Below, piece after piece: positions 1 through 62,814 of a DNA stretch of 64,000 nucleotides (positions are counted from its first letter, which is position 1; each line of letters starts with the position of its first letter). Source of the DNA: Gammaproteobacteria bacterium (GTDB lineage: Bacteria > Pseudomonadota > Gammaproteobacteria > Eutrophobiales > Eutrophobiaceae); the NCBI GenBank assembly GCA_965261775.1, contig OZ253477.1, positions 1,738,178 through 1,802,177 of the forward strand, in the 5' to 3' direction. The notes below the pieces were generated by a model. The model worked only from the letters and a program-made list of their open reading frames with translations, made no database searches and was not told where the DNA came from. The translations under genes were made by a program, and so were the position numbers.

Positions 1-983
1 CAGATAAACAAGTACTGATAGTCAGTGACGAAACTGTGGCTCCGCTTTATTTGGACACACTGGAAAAAAATTTAATTGGTCTTGAGGTTAACACGTTCAT
101 ACTGACTGCGGGCGAAAGTGCCAAAAACCTGGGTAATTTTGAGCGTATTATCGGGTGGCTTATTGAAAAAAGATACGACCGTACCTGCACGCTTATAGCG
201 TTAGGTGGCGGCGTTGTCGGAGATTTGACAGGCTTTGTCGCTGCCTGCTATCAACGTGGAGTCGGGTTCATTCAAATTCCGACAACGTTGTTAGCCCAGG
301 TCGATTCATCCGTTGGTGGCAAGACAGCGGTCAATCACCCCCTGGGTAAAAACATGATAGGTGCTTTTTATCAGCCGCTGATAGTCATAGCAGATACTGG
401 CGTATTGGCGACATTGCCGACCAGGGAGCTGTCGGCAGGGCTTGCGGAAGTCATAAAATATGGTCTTATCTGCGACCGCGCCTTTTTTGACTGGCTTGAA
501 GATAATATTGAAGCGTTGTTGAAGCGCGATGAGTCCGCGCTTACATACGCAATAGAGCGTTCGTGCATCAACAAAGCGGAAGTGGTCGCCGCCGATGAAC
601 GCGAATCCGGCTTAAGAGCGATACTCAATCTTGGGCACACCTTCGGGCATGCCATTGAAACAGCTCTATCTTACAAGGAGTGGCTACATGGTGAGGCAGT
701 AGCCTGCGGTATGTTGATGGCGGCAGATCTATCAGTGCGTTTGGGGATATTGGATATTAGCTGCCAGGATAGAATCAGTGCCCTATTGGAAAAAGCAGCA
801 TTACCTGTCCGAATATATAAAAATGTCAGTCTGGAAAATATGTTGCACAATATGAAAATTGATAAAAAATCTAGAGGAGGATTGTTGTATTTAATTCTGT
901 TAAAAGATATCGGGGATGCGGTGATTACCGCTGATTACAGCCAAGAGGCATTGGTTGAAACAATAAACCATTTTCTGCAATAA
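1..983 (+). CDS. aroB: 3-dehydroquinate synthase, 5' end truncated by the window edge
   Basis: Reading frame is open from nt 3 ([18 protein letters not shown]...). Conserved AroB blocks [46 protein letters not shown] and [11 protein letters not shown] are present. Confidence 0.93.
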
Positions 984-1076
984 AGAATTAGCACCAGCGT
1001 TGAAGTACAGTTTTGTGGGAGTGCATCACCAGTGATAGCGGGACAGTGTGCTAATCGAAATTGTGGGCGATAAAAT

Positions 1077-1104
1077 AAGAAAGGGACCTTAAGGTCCCTT
1101 TCTT
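1077..1104. terminator. Bidirectional rho-independent terminator shared by aroB and the pqqA-like gene
   Basis: Perfect hairpin AAGAAAGGGACC-ttaa-GGTCCCTTTCTT. A U-rich tract follows on the minus strand (TTATTTTAT) and an AT-rich tract on the plus strand. Confidence 0.7.
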
Positions 1105-1128
1105 ATTATTAAAGGTTGGTTGTAAGTC

Positions 1129-1203
1129 TCACTTGTTATTAATATACATGGTGACTTCAAAACCAAAGCGAATGTCGTTGTATTCAGGTGTTTCCCATTT
1201 CAT
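1129..1203 (-). CDS. pqqA: PqqA-like RiPP precursor peptide, 24 aa, missed by the ORF track
   Basis: Minus-strand translation is MKWETPEYNDIRFGFEVTMYINNK. It is near-identical in pattern to known PqqA peptides (M-W-KPA-YTDLRIGFEVTMY-R) and keeps the cross-linked Glu and Tyr in EVTMY. AGGAGA sits 7 nt upstream of the ATG, and the terminator follows immediately. Confidence 0.7.
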   Translation of the reverse strand: MKWETPEYNDIRFGFEVTMYINNK

Positions 1204-1985
1204 GATAAATCTCCTGTGTTTAATAAGTATGTTAACTAATAAAGCAAATCACATGCCATTTTTTTAATTATTTTTTGAAATCAACAGGTTAAATAGAATA
1301 TCCCTTTTTCCAAAGGAGATGTTATCTATTGTTGGTTATTATAAACCGGGAGACTTGATTTATATTAACCAAAGTAGGAACCATCAGATTTCTTTAACTA
1401 CATATTATATATTTGTTGCTCCTAATGGGTTTCTCTAAGCTGTTACGCGAGCGCAATGGCTATCAAAAACTGAAAGATGTGATACACTCTGCCGGTCTTA
1501 TGTGCAAAATAGCAATGATAAAATGTCGTCGTAAAAATGTGCGCTTTTTAAAAATATCTTAGCTATATGTAAGTTGCATATCTGGACATCACTATCAAAT
1601 TGTAAGTCTAGTCTACCACCTCGCAACCGTATCGATAGGCCGCTTTGAAGGTTTTTTGGACTATAACCTGCAGTCTCTAAACAGTCTGATAAATATGATC
1701 CATAGAACGCGTTTACCAAAAAGTTTGGTCGACATGGTGTTCCCCATGTGACTGGTTTTAAGTATTAGCTGTGCGCCCGGTTCTGCATCTAGGACAAATT
1801 GTGTAAGACATGACGCTACACAAGCGTAGGACGAAACAGAACAAACCGCTATGGCAATGCGTTTACTTCGATGACCATGATTTGAAATCAAAGGTAAATT
1901 TAAATAATAATGTTCGCCCCTTATAAGATGTCCGGATTAATATCAAGCCGGCAAACGTCCGTTTTGTTGACCATGGGAAGTCATA

Positions 1986-3329
1986 ATGTGGCGAAATAAT
2001 TCACAACGGGCTTTCTGGTTATTGGCTGGTCCAATGATCATCAATAATATCAGTGTAGCCTTGCTGGGGTTAGTTGATACGGCGGTCATCGGTCATCTAG
2101 ATAGCGCTGTTTATCTGGGGGGCGTTGCTATCGGCGCAGTTATTTTTGATTTTCTCTATTGGGGAATGGGATTTTTGCGAATGGGAACAACAGGGATAAC
2201 GGCCCAAGCACATGGGCAAAGTAACGCAAGCGAGACAGGAGCGGTACTGGTACAGTCGCTGTTGACCGGTCTTGGCATCGCGTTGCTGATTATCTTGTTG
2301 CAGAATCCGATTATTTATATTGGTACGTCCCTGATGCAGGGCAGTGAACAGGTTAGTCATTATGCTCTGATCTACTGTCAGTGGATGATTTGGGGAGCGC
2401 CAGCGGTGATGGTATTGTTTTCCGTAAGCGGCTGGTTTCTGGGTATGCAAAATGCCTTTGCAGCGTTGACGGTGGGCGTGGTAGTTAATATTGTTAATAT
2501 CGTGCTAGATATTATCTTTGTCATTTATCTGAAGATGGACGTGCGGGGCGTCGCGCTAGCGTCGGTTATTGCACAGTATGCGGGTGTGTTTCTAGCAATG
2601 TTAATGATCCGGAAACAACTGCGCTACGGTAAAGTGGCGTGGTCATTCGAAAAAATAATGGATTTGAATAAACTCAAACGGTTTTGGTCACTTAACCACA
2701 ATATATTTATTCGGACGGTCTGTCTTTTGCTGGTTTTTGTATTTTTTACAAGGGAGGGAGCTAGATACGGGGATTCGGTTCTTGCGGCAAACTCAATACT
2801 GATGAAATTCTATCTGTTAATGGCGATGGTACTGGATGGTTTTAATCATGCGGCAGAAACCTTGGTGGGAAAGGCCGTCGGTATAAGGAGCGAGACCCTG
2901 TTTAACAAGGCAGTTAGTCTTACTCTGAGGTGGTCGTTCTGGTTTGGTCTCGCCTTCTGTATGTTTTTCTGGGTCGGCGGTAGCTGGTTAATCAACGTCC
3001 TGACCGATATTGACACTGTCAAAGAAACTGCCAATCACTATTTGCCGTGGGTGATAGCTTTACCGCTGTTTTCCGTCTGGTGTTTTCTGCTGGATGGTAT
3101 TTTTATCGGTGCCACCAGAGGCCCCGAGATGCGCAACGCGATGTTGCTCTGCACCTTCGTGTTTTTTTTACCGATCTGGTATATCTTTCGTCCTTTGGGT
3201 AATCATGGTTTATGGCTGGCGTTCACCTTTTTTATTATTATGCGGGGTGTGGTGCTTGGGGCCTATTACACTTTAATCAAAAGAAAAAACGGTTTTGTGG
3301 GGCCGTCGTCTGTTATCATTCGGAAATAA
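1986..3329 (+). CDS. dinF: MATE-family multidrug efflux transporter (DinF/NorM-like)
   Basis: 447 aa with about 12 predicted TM segments and a MATE-like N-terminus (LAGPMIINNISVALLGLVDTAVIGHL). Confidence 0.8.
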   Translation: MWRNNSQRAFWLLAGPMIINNISVALLGLVDTAVIGHLDSAVYLGGVAIGAVIFDFLYWGMGFLRMGTTGITAQAHGQSNASETGAVLVQSLLTGLGIALLIILLQNPIIYIGTSLMQGSEQVSHYALIYCQWMIWGAPAVMVLFSVSGWFLGMQNAFAALTVGVVVNIVNIVLDIIFVIYLKMDVRGVALASVIAQYAGVFLAMLMIRKQLRYGKVAWSFEKIMDLNKLKRFWSLNHNIFIRTVCLLLVFVFFTREGARYGDSVLAANSILMKFYLLMAMVLDGFNHAAETLVGKAVGIRSETLFNKAVSLTLRWSFWFGLAFCMFFWVGGSWLINVLTDIDTVKETANHYLPWVIALPLFSVWCFLLDGIFIGATRGPEMRNAMLLCTFVFFLPIWYIFRPLGNHGLWLAFTFFIIMRGVVLGAYYTLIKRKNGFVGPSSVIIRK

Positions 3330-5031: not shown

Positions 5032-8000
5032 TTGCTACCCGTTTAAGCCTGGCAAACCCGGTTGCCTTGCTAGTCGCTGTTCTGCTTCTGCTTATATTCG
5101 GCCTGATCAGTTTTTTTCGGCTACCCGTTCAGTTAACGCCGGAACTTGAAGAACCCGAGATTACCATCACCACGAACTGGCGGGCCGCGGCGCCGAACGA
5201 GGTTGAGGCGGAAATTGTGGAACCACAGGAAGATGTTTTGAGAGGCTTGCCCGGGCTTGTGGAAATTCGCGCTCAGGCTTATGAAGGTAGGGCGGAGATC
5301 AATCTGCGCTTTGACGTTAATATGGATATGCGTCGTGCCTTGGTTGAAGTCATGAACCGACTCAATCAGGTTCCGGACTATCCCGATGACGCCGATGAGC
5401 CCTCCATATCGACAGTTGGTCAGGATGCACGCGCCATTGCCTGGTTTATCATTAAAACAGCCCCGGGGAATGACCAGCCCGTTGAAACCTACAAAGACTA
5501 TGTTGAAGAAGTCGTTCAGTCCCGTTTTGAACGTATTCCCGGTGTCGCTCGTTCGGAAGTCTATGGTGGTAGTGATCGCGAATTACGCATTACCTTTGAC
5601 CCTTATAAAATTGCCAGTTTTGACCTTCGGCTTGACAAAGTCATGCGATTGGTGGGGACCAGTGTTGATGTTTCTGGCGGTTTTGTAGATGTTGGAAAAC
5701 GTGAATACAGTTTGCGATTTGCGGGCAAATATGGTGCGCGTGACCTAGGGGAAATGATCTTAGATTGGCGAGAAGGCAGGCCGATATACCTGCGTGATGT
5801 TGCCGTGGTAGAAGATCGTTTATCGGACAAGGATAGTTTCGTCTTGACCAAGGGGACGCTTTCCATTGCGATCAACGCGCAACGTGAAACAGGTGTGAAT
5901 GTGTTACAGGTTATGTCCGGCCTGAAACAGGCGGTTGATGAACTTAATGCCGGTGCTCTGGAACGTGCCGGTTTGACGATGGAACAGGTTTATGACGAGA
6001 CAGTTTATATCCATCAGTCCATTAAAATGTTGCGCAATAATCTCGGCCTGGGAATCATTCTGGCGATCTTTGTTCTGTTTTTGTTCTTGTTAAAACCGTC
6101 GGCGACTATGATTGTCGCGACTTCCATTCCTATCTGTCTGATTGCCAGTTTCAGTATGATGGATATGATCGGCACGACGTTGAACGTTATATCACTGGCT
6201 GGACTGGCGTTTGCGGTAGGCATGGTGTTAGATGCTTCCATCATCATCCTAGAAAATATAGTGCGTTTGCGTGAAAAGGGGTTGTCCCCAGAAAAGGCCT
6301 CCCGGCAGGGGACGGATCAGGTCTGGGGTGCTTTGCTTGCGTCAACTCTGACTACTGTTGCTATCTTTTTGCCGGTCGTCTTTCTTCGCGATGAAGCTGG
6401 CCAGCTTTTTTCCGACCTGGCAATTACCATTGCCACCGCTATCAGTTTTTCCCTGCTGGTAGCCATTACGATTGTCCCGACAGCAGCGCGATTGTTTCTC
6501 ACAAATAGAAGATTTGTTGATCCGTATCATCATCTCTGGGAGAGGTTGTGCGGGATCATCATGAATTTGACGTGCACTCCCTTGCGTAGAAGCACATGGA
6601 TTATTCTCCTTATTTCCATCCCGTTTGCAATAATATTTTTTCTAAGACCGCAGGCGGATTATTTGCCAGATGGGAATCAGAACTTGGCCTTCGCCTTTAT
6701 CCTGCCGCCTCCCGGCATTAATATAAACACGCTCGAAAAAGAAATGGGCGCCATCGTCGCGGAGCGCATGCAACCTTATATTGAGGAGGTCAAAGAGCCT
6801 TATGTCCAACACTACTTTTTTGTTGCCTTTTCCCGCGGCGTATTCATGGGTGCGCGGGCGAAACACCATGAGGATGTGGATGAACTAGTTCCCCTGATCA
6901 ATTCGGTTGTGCAGGGTTTTCCAGATACGCTTGCTTTTGCCAAACAATCCTCGTTATTTCGCGGTTTCGGATCAGGTCGGACAATAGATATCAATATTCA
7001 ATCAAAAGATCTGCCGGCCTTGATGGATACGGCATTGCAAGCATTTTTTTCTATTATACCAATATACCCCAATACGCGGCCACAGCCCGGACTACAACTA
7101 TCACAACCGGAACTCCGCCTGATCCCAAATGAAAGACGTATCACCGAAGCGGGGCTGGATCGGTCGTTCGTTGCCGCGTTCATACAGACGCTCGGTGATG
7201 GTCGTTTTATCGGAGATTATTTTGATGGTGAGGAAACGCTGGATATTATTTTACGTTCTACCCCGTGGCGGACCCCGGAAGAACTGGGTACTATCCCGGT
7301 CGTGACGGCGAATACAGGAACCTTGCCTTTAAATGAATTGGTTAATGTTACGCGCACGGCAGGGCCGGAGCAAATCCGCCGCATCAACCGCCGCAGAACG
7401 GTGACGTTGCAGGTGTCTCCGCCGCCGACCACTTCGCTTGAAGAGGCGCTGGAAATTATTCAACATGATATTGCGCCGAAGATTCTCCAGCAATTGCCTG
7501 AAGACGGCGATATCCAGTATGGTGGTACAGCTGACAAGCTAACTACCACGTTGAATAATATGGCTAGCAGCTTTTTGCTGGCGATCACAATACTTTATTT
7601 ATTAATGAGTGCAATGTTCCGTTCTTTCCAGGTGAGTTTATTGGTAATGTTGGTCATTCCGCTCGCGACTTCGGGCGGGATACTGGCATTGCATATCATC
7701 AATCTGTTCACGTTTCAGCCGATGGACTTATTGACAATGATTGGTTTCATTATCCTGCTGGGACTGGTGGTGAATAATGCCATTCTGCTCGTTCATCAGG
7801 CGCGCTCTGCTGAAAGAGCGGGGGCGGATCGGACCAGTGCGGTCAAAGAGGCGATATTAATCAGATTAAGACCCATTATGATGAGCACCCTGACCAGTCT
7901 GTTCGGCATGTTGCCGTTGGCCATTATTCCAGGCGAAGGGACAGAGTTATATCGCGGTCTTGCTCTTGTAATTGTAGGAGGTATGCTGGTGAGTACATTT

Positions 8001-9934: not shown

Positions 9935-10624
9935 TTTCGGTTACGTCGTTTAAAATCCTTTTGACTGTCAATGACAGCTTATGTTAAACGGAAACAGATG
10001 TACAGGTTTGTGTATCATTTAGAAGACAGGTAGCCCCCACGCTGACAGTCATGTTGTTTCCCAGAAAGGTGTGTTGTTGACCACTCTTTTTATGTATTTA
10101 CTAGGCGCCTCCTGACTACTCCCCGTCATCAGACGCCTCTCCCCAATATATATCCATCCACAACGGTGGCCGGATAATACGATCCCGTCGTTTGACACGC
10201 TTCTCCCGAAGCGGGGACCATACTGAAATCAACCTTGCTGTTATTTATCAGGCATTTTCTATATTTTTTCCGCTCATGGGCATGATAGTCAGCAAAGTCA
10301 AGCACACAGGCGCTGCCGTCAGGCGCTTTCATCGGGTACCATCAATTCACTTCTACCTGTCCCGGATGATTTACCGTGCCTTGAACAACAGCGCATGGAC
10401 ATAGGATGACAACATAAATATCCAGACGCTGGTTCCGTCTCTAGTTCAGGGAGCCGGTAACGCCGAAGGGGATGAGGAAAGTCCAGATTCAATTAGCAGT
10501 TTGATGATCCTGATAAGCCTTCCGCTGTTTTTCACTAGACTGTGACATCTCCAGAAGACGCACCACGGTATCCTCGGGGTGATAGACTGCATTAACAGTG
10601 ACGCTGAAACACCAGGGCTGGGAG

Positions 10625-32669: not shown

Positions 32670-32865
32670 ATAGCGGGTATCAACCACGATATCGTCTCAG
32701 ACATTGAACTTGAACCAAGGTTCAAGGTGGGTGTCCCGGCCGGTACATCAGGCTTGCCATGAAATGGCCATGCACATCACAATACCGCGTCAAACTCCCG
32801 TTTTCGTAACTTATAAGCTCAAGTTACCATGAGCAGATAACGAATATCACAGAAGATACCCAAAT
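32670..32865 (-). ncRNA. ssrS: 6S RNA (SsrS)
   Basis: The minus strand immediately downstream of zapA contains the conserved 6S 3'-central hairpin CACCUUGAACCUUGGUUCAAG (E. coli CACCUUGAACCAAGGGUUCAAGG). A closing terminal stem pairs 5' GGGUAUC with 3' GAUACCC. Total length is about 190 nt. The placement matches the zapA-ssrS synteny. Confidence 0.6.
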
Positions 32866-61470: not shown

Positions 61471-62814
61471 TTAATCATATACAGTTGTTTTTAGTAATAA
61501 TGCCAGCATCAGCACAACGATGAGCATCACTGAAAATATCATGATATTTAAAGTGGCTTTACGGTGATGACTAATCCAGCGCATTATTTTTTGCCTGAGA
61601 GACTCTGGTTGTGCATCAATGGCATTACCATACATAAAGTGGCGAATGTCGTTGGCAAAGTCGGAGACTGTTGCGTAGCGATCTTCCGGTAAATATCGTG
61701 TTGCCTTTGCGACAATAGCTAATAACTGTTTCTGTTCATCAGCTTCTTTGGCATAAAGCGATGGCGGATCGATTTGACCGCAGCGGGCTTTCGTTATCAC
61801 CTCATCACTGTCTTTGCCGTTAATGGCACGGAGAAGCGTAACCAGCTCAAACAGGATCAGACCCAGAGAATACAAATCACTGCGATGGTCAAGGATATCA
61901 AGGTCGCCTTCGGCTTGTTCAGGTGACATATAAGCGGGTGTGCCTATTGCCTGACCCATCTTGGTCTTATCCTTATCATGAACCTCATCAGGGTCAATCA
62001 ATACAGTTTTATCACTGAAAGTTTCCCTGTCTACATCAATGGTTTTCGCGATACCCCAGTCCATGACATAAACTTCATTGTAAGGTCCAATCATGATATT
62101 TTTCGGTTTCAGATCACGATGAATGACACCCTTGCGATGGGCATAATGCATTGCATCACAGACCTTGAGAAAGTGTTCCAGGCGGATACGCAGGGTATGA
62201 TACTTATCCGGTTTGCCGTGTGCATCATATTGTTTCCGGGTTTCGCGGATATGATCCTTTAGTGTAATGCCATTAATCAGTTTCATCGTATAACCAGCGT
62301 TATTACGATCACTTTCCACTAAACCATATACCGGCACAATATTGGGATGTTGTAATTGTGCGGTGATCTGGGCTTCCATATAAAAACGCCCGATATAATT
62401 TCGGATATTGCCTATATGCGGGTGTATTTTTTTATAGGCGACGTTGCGATTCAACCTGTTATCACGTGCCACCAGGATTTCGCCCATAGAACCTTCACCA
62501 ATAGACTCAAGGACAGTGTAGTCCCCCACATCCGTGTGTGTACAAGTCGTTTTGTAGACGTCCATATCTGCATTCTGGCGACGTTTCCCGATATTGGTAA
62601 ACCCTTCCGTATATGAAATCGTAGAGAGATCTATCTTTTCCTGTATCTGGATATTTTTGTACTCAGCTTTGCTGATATGCTTATGTCTATAAAGATGCGC
62701 AACGAAATCTTCTTCAGAATGACAACTGTTCGTCACAATATATTCCTCGTAAAGCGATTCCAGCTCAGACGGGCTGATGGAGCTGATAATTTCCTTTATT
62801 GTTTCGGTCAACAT
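61471..62814 (-). CDS. Hanks-type serine/threonine protein kinase with a C-terminal membrane anchor
   Basis: G-loop GEGSMGEI, Lys in VAYKK, catalytic loop HRDLKPKN, DWG in place of DFG, activation loop GTPAYMSPE, and a C-terminal TM helix. An N-terminal ~100 aa is of unknown fold. Confidence 0.85.
   Translation of the reverse strand: MLTETIKEIISSISPSELESLYEEYIVTNSCHSEEDFVAHLYRHKHISKAEYKNIQIQEKIDLSTISYTEGFTNIGKRRQNADMDVYKTTCTHTDVGDYTVLESIGEGSMGEILVARDNRLNRNVAYKKIHPHIGNIRNYIGRFYMEAQITAQLQHPNIVPVYGLVESDRNNAGYTMKLINGITLKDHIRETRKQYDAHGKPDKYHTLRIRLEHFLKVCDAMHYAHRKGVIHRDLKPKNIMIGPYNEVYVMDWGIAKTIDVDRETFSDKTVLIDPDEVHDKDKTKMGQAIGTPAYMSPEQAEGDLDILDHRSDLYSLGLILFELVTLLRAINGKDSDEVITKARCGQIDPPSLYAKEADEQKQLLAIVAKATRYLPEDRYATVSDFANDIRHFMYGNAIDAQPESLRQKIMRWISHHRKATLNIMIFSVMLIVVLMLALLLKTTVYD

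Follow-up and report, generated by a model that had tools for sequence, protein, structure and literature searches.

A predicted stand-alone pqqA gene beside aroB in an uncultured marine gammaproteobacterial lineage

Known pqqA arrangements and the gene in the window

In the canonical pqqABCDE(F) operons of Klebsiella, Pseudomonas and Acinetobacter, pqqA is the first gene. The encoded peptide, PqqA, contains a Glu-x-x-x-Tyr pair in an E-V/I-T-x-Y core; the two residues are cross-linked and are the source of the atoms of pyrroloquinoline quinone (PQQ). Other bacteria keep pqqA elsewhere. According to PMC4109929, and to Ge et al. 2015 as cited in PMC11317620, genomes of the Methylophilaceae carry 3-12 copies of pqqA against one pqqBCDEFG, and the account in PMC11317620 gives five pqqA copies for Methylovorus, with the supply of PqqA reported to be rate-limiting. 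In Methylosinus trichosporium OB3b, pqqA is unlinked to pqqBCDE and pqqFG and had escaped annotation, and the expression of this gene was about 12,000 units compared with 160-370 for pqqB-E, a difference of about 40-fold (PMC3615186). Methylorubrum extorquens AM1 possesses the orphan genes pqqA2 and pqqA3, which respond to lanthanides, and a four-fold up-regulation of orphan pqqA was found with soluble neodymium (PMC11317620).

The stretch of DNA analyzed here, 64 kb in total and referred to as the window, contains a 24-codon minus-strand ORF that the original prediction had described as pqqA-like (Table 1). Translation of this ORF confirmed the prediction, giving MKWETPEYNDIRFGFEVTMYINNK. The peptide matched the Pfam family PF08042 (PqqA) with a score of 43.4 bits (cut-off 21.1; E 3e-11), in an alignment that spanned all 19 model positions. 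Additionally, it reached 47.1 bits with the NCBIfam model TIGR02107, an equivalog for the PQQ precursor peptide, for which the cut-off is 20 (E 1.4e-12). At E-values between 1e-11 and 1e-12 a chance match is excluded, even though 64 kb contains a few thousand short ORFs. Residues 16-20 read E-V-T-M-Y, the core expected from the prediction, with Glu16 and Tyr20 forming the E-x3-Y pair. PqqA peptides have about 20-30 residues and their own translation signals, and the window gene combines 24 codons with an AGGAG Shine-Dalgarno (SD) sequence of its own, as had been predicted. A motif scan of the 64-kb window revealed a single PqqA-like motif (n=1), the one in this gene. Judged by its sequence, the ORF is a real, self-contained gene of the PqqA family. 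The annotation as pqqA is sound and is not a discovery; NCBI nr already holds an identical peptide, named 'pyrroloquinoline quinone precursor peptide PqqA', in metagenome-assembled genomes (MAGs) of the same lineage. Nor is the gene unusual, since pqqA copies separated from the genes for the processing enzymes are well known from earlier work.

Table 1. Coordinates of the features in the window and in related loci.
Feature	Position	Strand	Description
pqqA CDS	1129..1203	(-)	24 codons plus TGA stop; product MKWETPEYNDIRFGFEVTMYINNK (translation, HMM matches, NCBI nr)
Shine-Dalgarno sequence AGGAG	1211..1215	(-)	7 nt 5' of the pqqA ATG, read from the sequence
Hairpin, predicted intrinsic terminator of pqqA	1074..1107	both strands	perfect 15-bp stem, 4-nt loop, U-rich 3' arms
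Intergenic region, pqqA/MatE divergent spacer	1216..1985		770 nt, AT-rich, GC about 0.31-0.40
aroB (3-dehydroquinate synthase), 3' part	1..983	(+)	convergent on pqqA; truncated by the window start; Pfam DHQ_synthase and DHQS_C
MatE-family efflux transporter gene	1986..3329	(+)	divergent from pqqA; Pfam MatE; context, outside the pqqA unit
Window Pfam content, first part			aroB, MatE, MoaB, HlyD/AcrB, ActP, Fur, BamE, CoaBC, ArgB, PilT/U, UbiH/F
Window Pfam content, second part			GlnRS, PetABC, SspAB, HisBH, HemF, RpiA, IlvA, PanCD, FolK, PcnB
Tandem pqqA pairs	L127 2895-3077; L141 3925-4105; L159 4206-4399; L176 4959-5154; L180 2482-2665		
Paralog cluster loci	L126 567-5124; L138 3180-7501; L151; L184		wider context in L193, L195, L197, L198

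The pqqA gene is followed by a hairpin that starts 21 nt past its stop codon and lies 90 nt past the aroB stop (position 983). The predicted fold has a free energy of -23.5 kcal/mol (z = -6.4), and no shuffled sequence equaled it. A simple terminator scan of the window did not call this hairpin because its U-rich stretch sits inside the long stem. The original prediction had described a perfect hairpin terminator shared with aroB. The perfect stem stands; its bidirectional use is plausible, as U-rich 3' arms are present on both strands, and the hairpin probably also terminates the convergent aroB. The promoter of pqqA must reside within the divergent spacer between pqqA and the MatE gene, where a sigma-70 promoter scan revealed no convincing site positioned to drive pqqA. 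The region 5' of the gene folded no better than shuffled sequences (z = -0.76), and a GC content as low as that of the spacer is usual in intergenic DNA. At the Rfam gathering thresholds, no family was found at the pqqA locus. A sub-threshold match to RF02420 (30.9 bits against 50) was dismissed because its score came mainly from the terminator hairpin.

Compared with the canonical operons, of which L199 and L255 are environmental examples, the window gene encodes a peptide of the same family with the same Glu/Tyr core, but it forms a separate predicted transcription unit with its own terminator. The small, unlinked pqqA of M. trichosporium OB3b, which is transcribed alone, matches the monocistronic SD-ORF-terminator anatomy predicted for the window. 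The OB3b peptide, however, belongs to an alphaproteobacterial type whose C-terminal tail is longer, and expression of its gene has been measured, whereas the window gene is known from sequence alone. In the Methylophilaceae (Methylotenera, Methylophilus and Methylovorus), several dispersed stand-alone pqqA genes likewise occur per genome, and the peptides, of the KWETP.Y.D.RFGFEVTMY type, closely resemble those of the window's lineage. The presumed role in both groups is to boost the precursor supply or to regulate it separately. In contrast to the window's lineage, which is uncultured and gammaproteobacterial, the Methylophilaceae are cultured betaproteobacterial methylotrophs in which pqqBCDE has been demonstrated. 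M. extorquens AM1 also has extra pqqA copies outside the pqq operon, separately regulated in that organism; AM1 differs in having an operon-linked pqqA as well, while 0/74 copies are operon-linked in the window's lineage.

Searches for pqqB-E in the window and in related loci

The claim that PqqB, PqqC, PqqD and PqqE are missing from the 64 kb held in Pfam, motif and tblastn searches. Among 61 non-overlapping window ORFs of at least 90 aa, Pfam detected no Radical_SAM/SPASM, TENA_THI-4 (PqqC), PqqD or Lactamase_B_2 (PqqB-type) domain, and the domain content of these ORFs is that of an ordinary gammaproteobacterial housekeeping region (Table 1). When 17 PqqB/C/D/E/F proteins from four environmental pqq operons were used as tblastn queries against the window and about 675 kb of related loci, the best E-value was 0.36; conserved-motif scans for pqqB-E were also negative in the window and in the related loci. 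An operon-linked pqqA has pqqB a few hundred nucleotides downstream on the same strand. On the 3' side of the window gene, the terminator is reached after 21 nt and the next gene is the convergent aroB (DHQ_synthase N and C domains), as predicted, instead of pqqB. Furthermore, neither a radical SAM/SPASM protein nor an RRE/PqqD-like maturase of a different radical-SAM/RRE RiPP pathway adjoins the window pqqA.

We found no pqqB, C, D or E in the fetched flanks of any of the 74 related and window copies described below. TIGR03866 beta-propeller homologs (also described below) served as anchors on four long contigs, and neither pqqBCDE nor a PQQ dehydrogenase was present within 10 kb of them. A codon-biased PqqE motif was found at 120 loci (L199-L318) in a scan of metagenomes, and none of these loci was tied to the window's lineage. 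The sole mid-GC candidate of that scan, L214, was considered as a source of the lineage's PqqC and rejected, as a homolog search placed it as alphaproteobacterial and Sneathiella-like.

The original prediction assumed that pqqA is immediately followed by pqqB-E in known producers, which is an over-generalization because unlinked, orphan and multicopy pqqA genes have been documented (PMC3615186, PMC4109929, PMC11317620). Our own comparison of environmental pqqB-C-E clusters agrees with these reports. In a rough sample of 36 clusters, comprising metagenome loci from L199-L318 with at least 400 nt available 5' of pqqB, 22 had no motif-recognizable pqqA within 600 nt of pqqB; this number is an upper bound because divergent PqqA peptides are missed by the motif. 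It follows that adjacency of pqqA and pqqB is far from universal. In L291, 5.3 kb were available 5' of pqqB and no motif-recognizable pqqA was present within 600 nt, and in L215 pqqA was located directly before pqqC, with no pqqB between them.

Related copies in the lineage, an accessory cluster and phages

The nearest relative of the MatE protein was a 340-aa fragment with 98% identity on the ENA metagenome contig L188; the next relative showed 71%. L188 and the window have 95-97% DNA identity and share the gene order pilNOPQ-aroK-aroB-[pqqA]-MatE-MoaB. The pqqA gene of L188 is present at the same site between aroB and MatE, where it had not been called as a gene. As evident from the alignment, the CDS, the SD and about 200 nt 5' of the pqqA ATG were almost unchanged, the only coding change being Lys24 to Arg, and the terminator hairpin was identical. 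The aroB-proximal spacer, on the other hand, differed by a 21-nt indel and scattered substitutions. In L188 the 21-nt insertion lies directly 3' of the aroB stop, and about 150 nt (L188 6143-6296) are extra in the pqqA-MatE spacer relative to the window (about position 1402); the pqqA unit between these two indels was almost unchanged. MatE homologs at about 70% identity occurred in uncultured gammaproteobacterial MAGs, where they were flanked by other genes, with neither aroB nor pqqA among them. This difference in flanks indicates that the aroB-MatE insertion site is specific to the species-level lineage of the window.

A collection of species-representative genomes was scanned with a degenerate nucleotide pattern encoding MKWETPEY.DIRFGFEVTMYI..K. 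At least 72 copies at 67 loci were identified in this way, distributed over 43 assemblies of uncultured marine Gammaproteobacteria (assemblies counted by accession prefix, all counts being lower bounds), and 23 of the 43 assemblies contained two or three copies, dispersed or in tandem. The pattern demanded a C-terminal Lys, whereas L188 ends in Arg, and the window's own species was not among the matches. The MAGs were labeled Gammaproteobacteria, 'Legionellales', 'Thiotrichaceae' or 'Enterobacteriaceae' bacterium, the last label surely being wrong; among the matched genomes were several closed chromosomes, 2.5-3.6 Mb in size. The window gene has the stand-alone anatomy and is present in one copy in the 64 kb, while more than one copy occurs in the 23 assemblies noted above.

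Together with the window and L188, the scan gave 74 copies, which comprised 66 distinct coding sequences and only three peptides. The constancy of the peptide in the 72 scanned copies was for the most part imposed by the search, since only three codons (9, 22 and 23) were free in the pattern. Across the 74 copies, codon 9 encoded Asn or Ser, codon 22 Asn and codon 23 only Asn, with synonymous variation; the E-V-T-M-Y core was present in 74/74 copies, although it was fixed by the search pattern. A purine-rich SD-like motif of the GGAG/GAGG type was seen a few nucleotides 5' of the ATG in 73/73 aligned upstream regions (judged by eye, uncounted). We found a stem of at least 8 bp after the stop codon in 62 of the 71 unique units, with a median start 19 nt past the stop, and a run of at least four U in 60 of these 62. 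Of the remaining nine units, five were the leading members of tandem pairs, and the other four had stems of 6-7 bp with U7-8 tails. The stem cores comprised 21 different sequences; a structure that is kept while the stem sequence varies is as expected of a functional terminator. On these signals, the related pqqA unit is a predicted self-contained minigene that is monocistronic, or bicistronic where it has been tandem-duplicated.

Tandem pairs were observed at five loci, with 37-53 nt between the copies (Table 1). Each copy of a pair had its own SD and a terminator followed only the second, so that the pairs are probably bicistronic.

The neighbors of the related copies were unrelated genes, among them cytochrome b561, L,D-transpeptidase, DUF302, ExbB, DsbA, photolyase, cytochrome c, EngB, sensor kinases and sigma-54 regulators. 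The neighbors scanned with Pfam/NCBIfam, which were part of the total, were housekeeping genes or accessory genes of PQQ catabolism.

In four genomes (L126, L138, L151 and L184), one pqqA paralog was located inside an accessory cluster of PQQ-dependent catabolism. One side of this paralog was occupied by a TIGR03866 'PQQ-dependent catabolism-associated beta-propeller protein' (322 bits; cut-off 287), next to which was a TIGR03863-like substrate-binding protein that scored 125.5 bits, below the cut-off of 413.6. On the opposite side, a sensor kinase accompanies a LuxR-type response regulator; in related loci, the homolog of this kinase has a LapD_MoxY_N domain. Within 20 kb around the beta-propeller gene, we also found a tungsten-type aldehyde:ferredoxin oxidoreductase, a MimR-like activator and a TonB-ExbBD system. 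The genes are ordered as aldehyde:ferredoxin oxidoreductase and ferredoxin, MimR-like activator, TIGR03863-like binding protein, TIGR03866 beta-propeller and pqqA, followed by the LuxR-type regulator, the MoxY-like kinase and TonB-ExbBD. Beta-propeller homologs were widespread on contigs of the lineage that also carry its MatE or pqqA, including a chromosome of 2,504,188 nt and contigs of 181,292 nt and 46,200 nt; the contigs were equated with one another by their lengths. Together, these genes point indirectly to a use of PQQ by the lineage.

A report on viruses of methylotrophs in Lake Baikal describes a PqqA encoded by phage (PMC7678222). When IMG/VR was scanned with a broad DNA pattern for PqqA, at least 120 contigs (L001-L120) matched, which suggests that phage-borne PqqA is common. 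Among the matches listed, all peptides were typical PqqA of 23-25 residues, and pqqB was present downstream on only one contig, the other copies standing alone without pqqB-E. Several copies among the matches listed showed 86-94% DNA identity to the window gene within the CDS only, and no contig among these at least 120 matches was syntenic with the window. Annotation with PHROGs revealed two of the contigs to be tailed-phage fragments: in L060 (pqqA at 7085-7138), head-tail adaptor, protease and tail tubular genes surround pqqA, and in L114 (pqqA at 10501-10566), the large terminase and portal genes are the immediate neighbors of pqqA. The peptides of L060 and L114 (...ICNK and ...INAK) are near-identical to that of the window. 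A stand-alone pqqA is meaningful in a phage only when its hosts are able to process the peptide. The window copy resembles the phage PqqA of Lake Baikal in standing alone without processing genes, but it differs in being chromosomal and located among housekeeping genes, with no phage genes nearby.

Function of the gene and further observations

The window gene is very probably a functional monocistronic pqqA that supplies PqqB-E encoded elsewhere, which is the reading of the original prediction that the evidence favors. In this mechanism, the gene's own promoter, SD, 24-codon ORF and intrinsic terminator would give rise to the ribosomal precursor peptide of pyrroloquinoline quinone. PqqD would bind the N-terminal part of the peptide, PqqE would cross-link Glu16 to Tyr20, and the cross-linked product would be trimmed and oxidized by PqqF/G-type peptidases, PqqB and PqqC encoded elsewhere on the chromosome. 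Each PQQ made uses up one PqqA molecule, and separate transcription would allow this consumed substrate to be made in excess of the enzymes. With a separate and often multicopy gene, the precursor supply would be set independently of the catalytic enzymes. We infer that the gene is transcribed, that pqqBCDE exists in this genome and that the peptide is converted to PQQ.

A different reading holds that the gene is a decaying remnant, no longer expressed or used, which is either all that survives of a former pqq operon or a defunct duplicate. The lack of pqqB-E within 64 kb would fit such a remnant, as would the absence of the aroB-pqqA-MatE order from relatives at about 70% protein identity and the promoter scan that gave no site for pqqA. 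Decay is nevertheless contradicted by the intact ORF, SD and terminator and by the retention of the gene in L188, where K24R is the only change in the peptide while the flanking intergenic DNA of this 95-97% identical relative has accumulated substitutions and indels. The same peptide is also maintained in 66 distinct nucleotide versions, and no fragments of pqqB-E lie beside the gene; we therefore regard a remnant as scarcely credible. It is also very unlikely that the peptide is merely PqqA-like and has another fate in a lineage without pqqBCDE, either through an unknown modification or by being active itself. The finding that 0/74 copies are linked to pqqB-E can be read in this way, as can the failure to find pqqBCDE in the lineage loci sampled (flanks, about 675 kb, as distinct from whole genomes) and the position of one paralog near TonB-ExbBD and a tungsten-type aldehyde oxidoreductase, in place of a PQQ dehydrogenase. 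However, the peptide keeps every canonical PqqA hallmark at an equivalog score, and accessory genes of PQQ catabolism are present in the lineage. The different modification system put forward in the original prediction is without support, as no radical-SAM, RRE or other maturase was found near any of the 74 copies, whose neighbors were partly scanned with Pfam/NCBIfam, and a CxxxCxxC motif was present in 0/54 neighbor-gene clusters within 3 kb of the copies. The missing pqqBCDE reflects a limited search with no lineage-specific bait, which differs from a negative whole-genome search. There is only a slim chance that the lineage is truly without pqqBCDE yet keeps dispersed pqqA minigenes, found in phages too, that feed an unknown route or act in another way; if pqqBCDE were truly absent from a complete genome, the finding would matter much more.

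Phage contigs with pqqA at 86-94% DNA identity (among the matches listed), a site specific to the species-level lineage of the window, and copies that occur in many unrelated contexts and in tandem pairs in the relatives raise the question of a recent mobile acquisition through phage or recombination, by which the gene would be a functional accessory extra copy and another copy the principal pqqA. We consider this rather unlikely. No integrase or phage genes were found at the site, a search for MITE-like flanking repeats around the pqqA unit found none, and the low GC of the spacer, as stated above, is ordinary. Moreover, this alternative concerns only the origin of the gene and is compatible with a functional monocistronic pqqA that supplies enzymes encoded elsewhere.

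In terms of annotation, a 75-nt gene that is skipped by ORF callers is the putative precursor gene of an essential redox cofactor and should be annotated. All pqqA copies seen in the lineage were SD-ORF-terminator units of the same self-contained kind (with the terminator after the second copy in tandem pairs). With this gene, an uncultured marine gammaproteobacterial family with genomes of 2.5-3.6 Mb joins the bacteria already known to keep the supply of the precursor separate from the PQQ enzymes; the gene leaves the understanding of PQQ biogenesis unchanged. The paralog in the accessory cluster and the near-identical phage copies suggest that PQQ-dependent metabolism matters to the lineage.

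Some further features were observed in the course of the analysis. In copies of the Ser9 type (e.g. L157 at about 500-555, L150 and L165), a GC-rich hairpin, GTGTCCCGG...CCGGG, with a U-rich run and a conserved TTAAC motif behind it, precedes the SD by only about 25 nt. Given this short distance to the SD, the hairpin must belong to the pqqA 5' leader, where it could be an attenuator or a 5' stabilizing stem; the window pqqA has the TTAAC motif without significant 5' structure. The only Rfam report elsewhere in the window was a 6S (SsrS) RNA gene at 32677-32858 (-), with a score of 71.7 bits for RF00013 against a gathering threshold of 46.4. A eukaryote-type Ser/Thr protein kinase gene (Pkinase domain) is located at 61471-62814 (-) of the window, and Pkinase genes fused to a response regulator recur beside the PQQ-accessory cluster in the related MAGs L193, L195, L197 and L198.
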